64,000 bases of DNA from Escherichia coli (GTDB lineage Bacteria > Pseudomonadota > Gammaproteobacteria > Enterobacterales > Enterobacteriaceae), in NCBI RefSeq assembly GCF_003334305.1, contig NZ_QOWS01000014.1; one strand, given 5' to 3'. Below are positions 57,615 through 58,832 of this stretch, piece after piece. Made by a program: the position numbers and the translations under genes. Within the stretch, counting starts at the first letter, position 1. Each line of letters opens with the position of its first letter. The notes under the pieces are model-generated. The model saw only the letters and a program-made list of their open reading frames with translations, made no database searches and was not told where the DNA came from.

Positions 57615-57635
57615 TTGACAACATCTGGTACGATT

Positions 57636-58103
57636 CGCCCGCAGCCATCACTGACCGCGGGCGAAAGTGTAAAGCAGGTGCCTTACCACTCTGACCTGAC
57701 AACCGGATATGCGGGGATTGCTCCCCGCACAACGGCTACTTCTTCGGTTCGTAAGCGAGAACAGCCTTAAACTCAATATTACGTTCCTTTACGGTGAACT
57801 CACACAGCGAGTCTCCGACCAGAAGCGTAAATCCCAGTACCGTCAAACACAGCACTATGACTGCCACAAGGGCATATTTCGTCAGCATGTTTATATTGCC
57901 TCCATGCGAAGAAGGGACTACCATCCGAGTTGTTGAGGCTCGGAGTGGCAGCCCCAGGATTGATAGAAATATCTCCTGGGGCTTCATCTTTCCAGACCTC
58001 AGAGTTAACCTGAAACCGGAAAGCTTCAGGCACCCGCCGTTATCTTACCCTTCCTCAACAAAATAGCTGTTTATTTATACAGTGAATCCTGTTTCGGACT
58101 TCT
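57636..58103 (-). other. hokE: hok/sok-type type I toxin-antitoxin locus, copy 1 (hok, mok region, antisense sok and fold-back elements)
   Basis: 468-bp unit with a terminal hairpin CGCCCGC-N13-GCGGGCG at 57636-57663, a Hok CDS and an upstream mok-like region; repeated 503 bp downstream. Confidence 0.8.
57736..57888 (-). CDS. hokE: Hok-family membrane toxin (50 aa), copy 1
   Basis: [50 protein letters not shown] preceded by GGAGG; in this copy an upstream ATG (57987) is in frame, giving an 83-aa ORF. Confidence 0.85.
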
Positions 58104-58238
58104 GTCGGCAAAACTCATCATTGCTCTTAAAACGAAATCGCCCGCAGCCATCACTGACCGCGGGCGAAAGTGTAAAGCAGGTGCCTTACCATCCTGACCT
58201 GACAACCGGATATGCGGGGATTGCTCCCCGCACAACGG

Positions 58239-58391
58239 CTACTTCTTCGGTTCGTAAGCGAGAACAACCTTAAACTCAATATTACGTTCCTTTACGGTGA
58301 ACTCACACAGCGAATCCCCGACCAGAAGCGTAAATCCCAGCACCGTTAAACACAGCACTATGACTGCCGCAAGGGCATATTTCGTCAGCAT
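58239..58391 (-). CDS. hokE: Hok-family membrane toxin (50 aa), copy 2
   Basis: [50 protein letters not shown]; two amino-acid differences from copy 1 (V8A, A42V). Confidence 0.85.
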
Positions 58392-58491
58392 GTTTATATT
58401 GCCTCCATGCGAAGAAGGGACTACCATCCAAATTGTTCAGGTTTGGGTAGGTAGCCCCAGGGTTGATAGAAATATCGTCCTGGGGCTTCAT
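58303..58491 (-). CDS. Mok-like overlapping reading frame (modulator of hok translation), copy 2
   Basis: 62-aa ATG-initiated frame [12 protein letters not shown]... that overlaps hok copy 2 out of frame, the canonical mok/hok arrangement. Confidence 0.5.
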
Positions 58492-58832
58492 CTTTCCAGA
58501 CCTCAGAGTAAACCTGAAACCGGAAAGCTTCAGGCACCCGCAGTTATCTTACCCTTGCTTAGCAAAATAGCTGTTTATTTATACAGTAAGTCCTGTTTCG
58601 GACTTCTCACTCCCCATTTGATCAACTGAAGCTGAACCCGTTTTTTTCTGCATGCCTCAATCGTCAAAATTCTTCGCCACCAGCCAGCCGTGCCATAACT
58701 TGTCACATTGCAAAAGTAGCCAAATTGCTTCAGTCACCATCACCAAAAAAAGAAACATTCCAGAACTTCCGCATCTCGCCCAGCCGCTCCGACTTCTATA
58801 CTGAATAGAAAACGCCAACTTAAGAGAAACCT

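Follow-up and report, generated by a model that had tools for sequence, protein, structure and literature searches.

In Escherichia coli K-12 MG1655, the interval between ybdK and entD holds sokE, a single hokE, and the insertion sequence IS186B, which starts 18 bp past the hokE stop codon. IS186 there occupies the loop of a GCGGGGA..TCCCCGC hairpin and cuts the hok unit off its 3' element; its target preference is GGGG(N6-7)CCCC. Among hok genes, 10% are found in islets of two to six copies that arose by local duplication (bioRxiv 10.1101/2025.08.07.668861). Elsewhere on the chromosome, the nitroreductases NfsA and NfsB reduce nitrofurans to toxic forms, and resistance to these drugs is usually acquired stepwise, with nfsA altered first (PMC8767348). 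Published genotypes are graded accordingly: an nfsB frameshift (Y183fs) alone is susceptible at a nitrofurantoin MIC of 32 mg/L, NfsA G154E alone, a listed resistance substitution, reaches 64 mg/L, and an nfsA missense change combined with an nfsB nonsense change exceeds 512 mg/L (PMC8767348). The eight categories of alteration defined there include a premature nfsB stop, and a further exchange at the same NfsA residue, G154W, is listed as ‘unknown’ (PMC8767348).

The DNA analyzed here, referred to as the window, is a stretch of 64,000 nt that runs from mrdA to pheP. The original prediction held that its gene order follows the K-12 map throughout, and that it departs from MG1655 at three loci, i.e., by the lack of IS186 and an extra hok unit at the entD–ybdK junction, by an intact ybeM, and by an amber codon in nfsB. 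Alignment with MG1655 revealed colinearity from mrdA to pheP, and the three MG1655 alleles on which the prediction relied (IS186 by hokE, a ybeM pseudogene, and an intact nfsB) proved to be correct, with the window differing at all of them. The alignment consists of three colinear blocks of 99.3%, 97.9%, and 98.0% identity and contains 924 mismatches (about 1.5% divergence over the whole window) as well as several indels. As the window is thus only 97.9–99.3% identical to MG1655 and not 100% identical to K-12, the claimed departure stands. The ‘K-12-like gene order’ itself reflects nothing more than the backbone that E. coli strains have in common.

Much closer matches were found among natural isolates. 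Isolate H15 differs from the window by 11 SNPs and no gaps across the 64,000 nt; six of the SNPs are synonymous, two are intergenic, and the remaining three result in EntF G217R, YbdK H90Y, and NfsB Q44*. Strain A7 (orangutan faeces, USA; NZ_CP028767.1) shows 18 differences, none of which falls on the 11 sites that distinguish H15, so that the window has the A7 allele at all 11. A7 and H15 are the nearest complete genomes. The window is colinear with this natural lineage at a divergence of no more than about 0.02%, and it lacks what characterizes the K-12 lineage, namely near-identity to MG1655, IS186B at hokE, and the 1-bp deletion in ybeM. Its source is accordingly a member of the A7 lineage, or A7 itself in a different assembly, rather than a K-12 derivative. 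Of the origins that had been proposed, the non-MG1655 lineage is therefore borne out by the 924 mismatches to MG1655 and the 11 SNPs to H15, whereas a derived laboratory strain is excluded. Our overall reading, to which we assign a probability of roughly 85%, is that the window covers mrdA to pheP in the core genome of a natural E. coli lineage outside K-12 and shows three independent polymorphisms of different ages, of which the nfsB amber is most likely nitrofuran-selected.

The entD–ybdK spacer comprises 1,218 nt (57615–58832) and extends exactly from after the entD stop (57614) to the ybdK start (58833). It is bordered on the left by entD (56994–57614, plus strand; 206 codons), which is annotated as such in A7 and H15, and on the right by ybdK (58833–59951, plus strand), which carries the H90Y exchange relative to H15. 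Two hokE/sok units are arranged in the spacer as direct repeats on the minus strand. The entD-proximal unit 1 (57635–58103) is a full-length hok mRNA unit with the direct-repeat families D1 and D2, and is separated from the ybdK-proximal unit 2 (58138–58607) by a 34-nt spacer that forms the tandem junction (58104–58137). The repeat period is 503–504 nt, and the copies are 94.7% identical over 471 columns (22 mismatches and 3 gaps). BLAST found no match to the MG1655 IS186B anywhere in the 64-kb window, which, together with the two tandem units, agrees with the predicted state of this junction.

Each unit encodes a peptide of 50 aa on the minus strand. The hokE-1 coding sequence (57736–57888) corresponds to the PGAP-annotated HokE WP_000956465.1 in A7 and H15, an accession that also applies to the single hokE unit of ATCC 25922, and hokE-2 (58239–58391) corresponds to HokE WP_000956456.1 in A7 and H15; the hokE-2 peptide differs from that of hokE-1 at two positions (V8A and A42V). 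The hok mRNA leader with the Sok-target region was recognized by Rfam model RF01794 at 57880–58035 in unit 1 (minus strand; 86.5 bits, E = 1.8e-19, full model 1–157) and at 58383–58539 in unit 2 (minus strand; 86.2 bits, E = 2.2e-19), with both units matched full-length on the hok strand and well above the gathering score of 59. The GCGGGGATTGCTCCCCGC hairpin of unit 1 (57711–57728), whose MG1655 equivalent holds IS186B, is uninterrupted, and so is the GCGGGGA..TCCCCGC hairpin of unit 2 (58214–58231); unit 2 further has a terminator-like hairpin with a T-run (58167–58138). In the predicted minimum free energy folds of transcripts of about 400 nt, nucleotides 1–8 (GGGUGCCU) of both units are paired with a 3' AGGCACCU, which is followed by a terminal hairpin. 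Such predicted pairing between the 5' and 3' ends is the fold-back by which hok mRNAs are characterized. Both units hence combine three of the features looked for in the Hok family, i.e., an ORF for a hydrophobic peptide of about 50 aa, the RF01794 leader, and the predicted fold-back, and both look structurally intact.

The two units are not equivalent with respect to mok. In unit 1, an upstream ‘mok’ ATG lies in frame with hok and opens an ORF of 83 codons (57736–57987, minus strand), as is also the case for the K-12 hokE, and no ATG-started ORF exists in the usual overlapping mok frame. In unit 2, an additional base (58477) restores an out-of-frame, mok-like ATG ORF of 62 codons that overlaps hok (58303–58491, minus strand). 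The coupling of hok translation may therefore differ between the units. The sokE annotated in MG1655 corresponds to about 58435–58494 on the plus strand in unit 2, and we infer the position of SokE in the window from this annotation. A scan for consensus sigma-70 promoters of hok and sok returned none at its threshold and is uninformative either way. Antisense to unit 2, PGAP annotates an 89-aa ‘hypothetical protein’ (58297–58629, plus strand) in A7, H15, and ATCC 25922; other genomes have this ORF marked as frameshifted, and it is probably spurious.

Comparison with MG1655 provides a possible history of the locus. After removal of the insertion sequence, the K-12 unit can be aligned to both copies in the window: its entD-side border corresponds to copy 1, its ybdK-side border to copy 2, and its interior is a mix of bases diagnostic for either copy. 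Such a chimeric unit is consistent with, but no proof of, a collapse of the pair by recombination between the copies. The two units of the window would reflect a type I toxin–antitoxin locus that was duplicated in tandem long ago, as the copies now differ by about 5%. MG1655 has one unit, possibly left by copy–copy recombination, with IS186 in the GGGG...CCCC hairpin parting off the 3' fold-back element.

To place these states within the species, we determined their frequencies in 5,426 complete RefSeq E. coli genomes. The tandem junction, scored with a 161-nt query over copy 1, spacer, and copy 2 at a coverage of at least 80%, was present in 2,503 genomes (46%), and the hokE–IS186 junction of MG1655 was present in 1,964 (36%), although both percentages depend on the rules by which BLAST places were joined and were confirmed on a handful of records only. 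No other single state of the locus is as common in E. coli as the two hok units. A 2,101-nt query over the locus is matched at 100% identity by at least 40 complete genomes, and the best 40 matches were all annotated ‘hokE (x2)’. The coverage of this longer query (4,592 of 5,426 genomes) was rejected as an estimate of the two-unit fraction, since a single unit can align to both query copies and be joined into one place, so that MG1655 itself would pass. Spot checks revealed two annotated hokE genes in O157:H7 (Z1816) and one each in strain 700481 and ATCC 25922; the single-unit genomes include the one of phylogroup B2 that was inspected.

The genomes with the hokE–IS186 junction include animal and human isolates, and a swine isolate (NZ_CP082327.1) has the full K-12 arrangement with IS186 at hokE. 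As the junction occurs in natural isolates, it is no K-12-private mark; IS186 at the hokE hairpin is either an old, lineage-wide insertion or the product of a recurrent hot spot. Two further records deserve mention. In BL21 (BL21-RIPL, NZ_CP083273.1), all that remains of hok next to entD is the 3' end of one unit; a truncated rpn gene and mdtM come next, and ybdK and nfsB are not adjacent, which indicates that the locus was rearranged in the B lineage. A 4.83-Mb RefSeq record named ‘DH5alpha’ (NZ_CP026085.1) contains the tandem hokE locus at 100% identity to the window; it is probably mislabelled, as a tandem hokE does not fit a K-12 derivative.

The second locus, ybeM (8327–9115, minus strand), is an uninterrupted ORF of 262 codons; the PGAP annotations of A7 and H15 give its product as deaminated glutathione amidase. 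MG1655 is one base short at the position matching 8916 of the window, and its ybeM is annotated as pseudogene b4581, so that the prediction of an intact gene was correct. A 61-mer spanning the K-12 deletion was found exactly in 860 of 5,424 genomes (16%), non-laboratory isolates among them, and the others have the extra base. The intact gene is the majority form, and the 1-bp deletion is a mark of K-12 and of genomes close to it. Beyond the three loci of the original prediction, the window departs structurally from K-12 at a fourth site in the ahpC–ahpF spacer (27539–27546), where the alignment breaks between blocks: MG1655 has an ERIC-like repeat of about 82 nt that the window lacks. The extra MG1655 sequence holds the ERIC/IRU core (GTGAATCCCCGGGAGCTTACA...AAGTAAGTGACCGGGGTGAGCG).

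The third locus is the only one at which the window carries a rare allele. In nfsB (60792–61445, plus strand), codon 44 reads TAG (60921–60923) instead of the CAG of MG1655 and H15, owing to a C-to-T change at 60921, which confirms the predicted amber and leaves nfsB a pseudogene. The product stops after 43 of 217 residues, i.e., 174 residues are cut off, and translation could restart only with a GTG ORF that begins near residue 69. In the NfsB structure, N-terminal residues hold the FMN. As a restarted product would lack them, the amber is presumably a null allele, and the oxygen-insensitive nitroreductase activity of NfsB would be lost. A 61-mer centred on the amber was exact in a single one of the 5,397 genomes with a match, namely A7, whose nfsB is flagged by PGAP with an ‘internal stop’, and across an 801-nt nfsB region, A7 was alone at 100% among the matches listed (the rest at 99.8%). 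The C-to-T change that turned Gln44 into an amber is recent and private to this lineage. Another site at which the window and H15 differ is 61447, 2 nt past the nfsB stop codon; the 801-nt result fits two private changes, this SNP and the amber, less than 530 nt apart. The Q44* allele was found neither in PMC8767348 and its supplements nor by full-text literature search, in which one apparent match turned out to be cysN Q440*. Hence, two of the three loci are in states common to natural isolates, with K-12 being the odd one or in a minority, and the nfsB amber is the sole true rarity.

The nfsA gene lies outside the window and was read in the nearest genome, A7, from whose RefSeq sequence the window differs at 18 sites. 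A7 NfsA is full length and identical to the K-12 protein at 239 of 240 residues, the sole change being G154R, and the 61-mer at this codon was exact in A7 only among 5,215 genomes. By its kinship with A7, the genome of the window would have the nfsA change as well and thus the double-mutant genotype, of which the nfsB part, the presumably inactivating Q44*, is seen in the window itself. No phenotype for G154R was found in PMC8767348 and its supplements, including the list of validated substitutions, and a literature search for A7 and its zoo-animal series yielded neither a source paper nor a phenotype. Taken together, NfsA G154R and NfsB Q44* would predict nitrofuran resistance in an animal commensal, with both the phenotype and the selection by nitrofurans deduced from the genotype.

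We weighed these results against other explanations, beginning with those that concern the window as a whole. A K-12 derivative or another laboratory strain, in which IS186 was lost, hokE duplicated, ybeM reverted, and nfsB mutated, would explain the gene order shared with MG1655, and nfsB mutations are easily selected in the laboratory; however, the divergence of about 1.5% is spread over the entire window, wild isolates such as H15 match it near-perfectly, and the two hok copies are set apart by 22 positions and 3 gaps, far beyond what a recent duplication would show, which makes such an origin vanishingly improbable. Only slightly more credit is due to the idea that the nfsB amber or the extra hok unit is an artefact of sequencing or assembly. 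It gains some ground from A7, which shows an odd cluster of indels relative to the window, which points to a problem in at least one of the two assemblies. Of the 18 sites at which A7 departs from the window, 16 belong to this cluster, which is confined to 5.5 kb of entH–fepB (37263–42796; entH, entA, entE, entC, and fepB), where deletions of up to 16 nt, tandem duplications of 4 and 8 nt, and 4 SNPs were found. PGAP marks fepB, entE, and entH as frameshifted in A7, the window ORFs are full-length and agree with H15, and several other isolates are about 100% identical to the window in this region; the pattern in A7 is either a fault of its assembly or a real decay of its enterobactin genes. 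At the loci in question, however, the RefSeq assembly of A7 has the identical T in nfsB, many independent assemblies share the hok tandem without a sequence difference, and the window is gap-free against H15, and we therefore consider an artefact very unlikely.

A more serious competitor concerns only the meaning of the amber, which could have arisen by neutral decay or hitch-hiking and have no link to nitrofurans, with G154R in A7 being coincidental or silent. nfsB is not an essential gene, and strains that lack only NfsB remain susceptible (Y183fs, as above); because a null allele alone barely shifts the MIC, the amber could well be neutral decay if the nfsA change were absent. The phenotype of A7 was also not found in the literature, and G154R is missing from the validated substitutions. 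Against this, both nitrofuran-activating reductases are privately changed in one genome out of about 5,200–5,400, one change being null and the other affecting a residue with a known resistance substitution, which favours selection by nitrofurans. At the divergence from H15 (11 SNPs per 64 kb), only about 0.1 SNP per gene is expected as a rough estimate, so that damaging changes in both nfsA and nfsB are unlikely to have occurred by chance (below 1%, likewise a rough estimate). We thus regard neutral decay as the less probable option, albeit one to be reckoned with. The most likely interpretation of the amber is that it would be the second step of a two-step, nitrofuran-selected loss of both nitroreductases. 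Its most specific form, in which the amber completes a nitrofuran-selected double knock-out (NfsA G154R and NfsB Q44*) in a commensal of a captive orangutan, stands at about even odds.

In general terms, the window displays ordinary strain polymorphism within known biology: hokE and ybeM are present in common natural forms, accompanied by one recent loss-of-function mutation of a kind that is well understood. IS186 by hokE and the frameshift in ybeM, both textbook features of K-12, represent derived or minority states that are shared with some wild strains. The significance beyond strain typing is small, and the practical interest lies in the nfsB nonsense allele, as the prediction of nitrofurantoin resistance depends on recognizing loss-of-function changes. 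The two alleles NfsA G154R and NfsB Q44* would enter genotype-to-phenotype catalogues for nitrofurantoin. If the nitrofuran interpretation is true, chromosomal nitrofuran resistance would have arisen de novo in the gut of a zoo animal, with a new resistance allele in each gene.

With regard to the known systems, the resistant nfsA/nfsB double mutants of PMC8767348 resemble the present case in the premature stop in nfsB and in the NfsA residue affected, as the A7 change falls on the site of G154E. They differ in that their phenotypes were measured, whereas the window provides a sequence that excludes nfsA, and Q44* is not among their alleles. The MG1655 ybeM pseudogene (b4581) is the same gene at the same place between crcB and tatE, and the window has its intact form. 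The hokE/sokE locus of MG1655 (b4415/b4835) belongs to the same type I toxin–antitoxin family and occupies the same entD–ybdK site, with the same GCGGGGA..TCCCCGC hairpin and 5'–3' fold-back element, and its Hok peptide is one residue off each of the window copies. However, MG1655 has one chimeric unit and IS186B, whereas the window has two units and no IS186. The tandem hokE pairs of O157:H7 (Z1816), H15, and A7 are identical to the window in architecture, and nothing of note sets the window apart from them.
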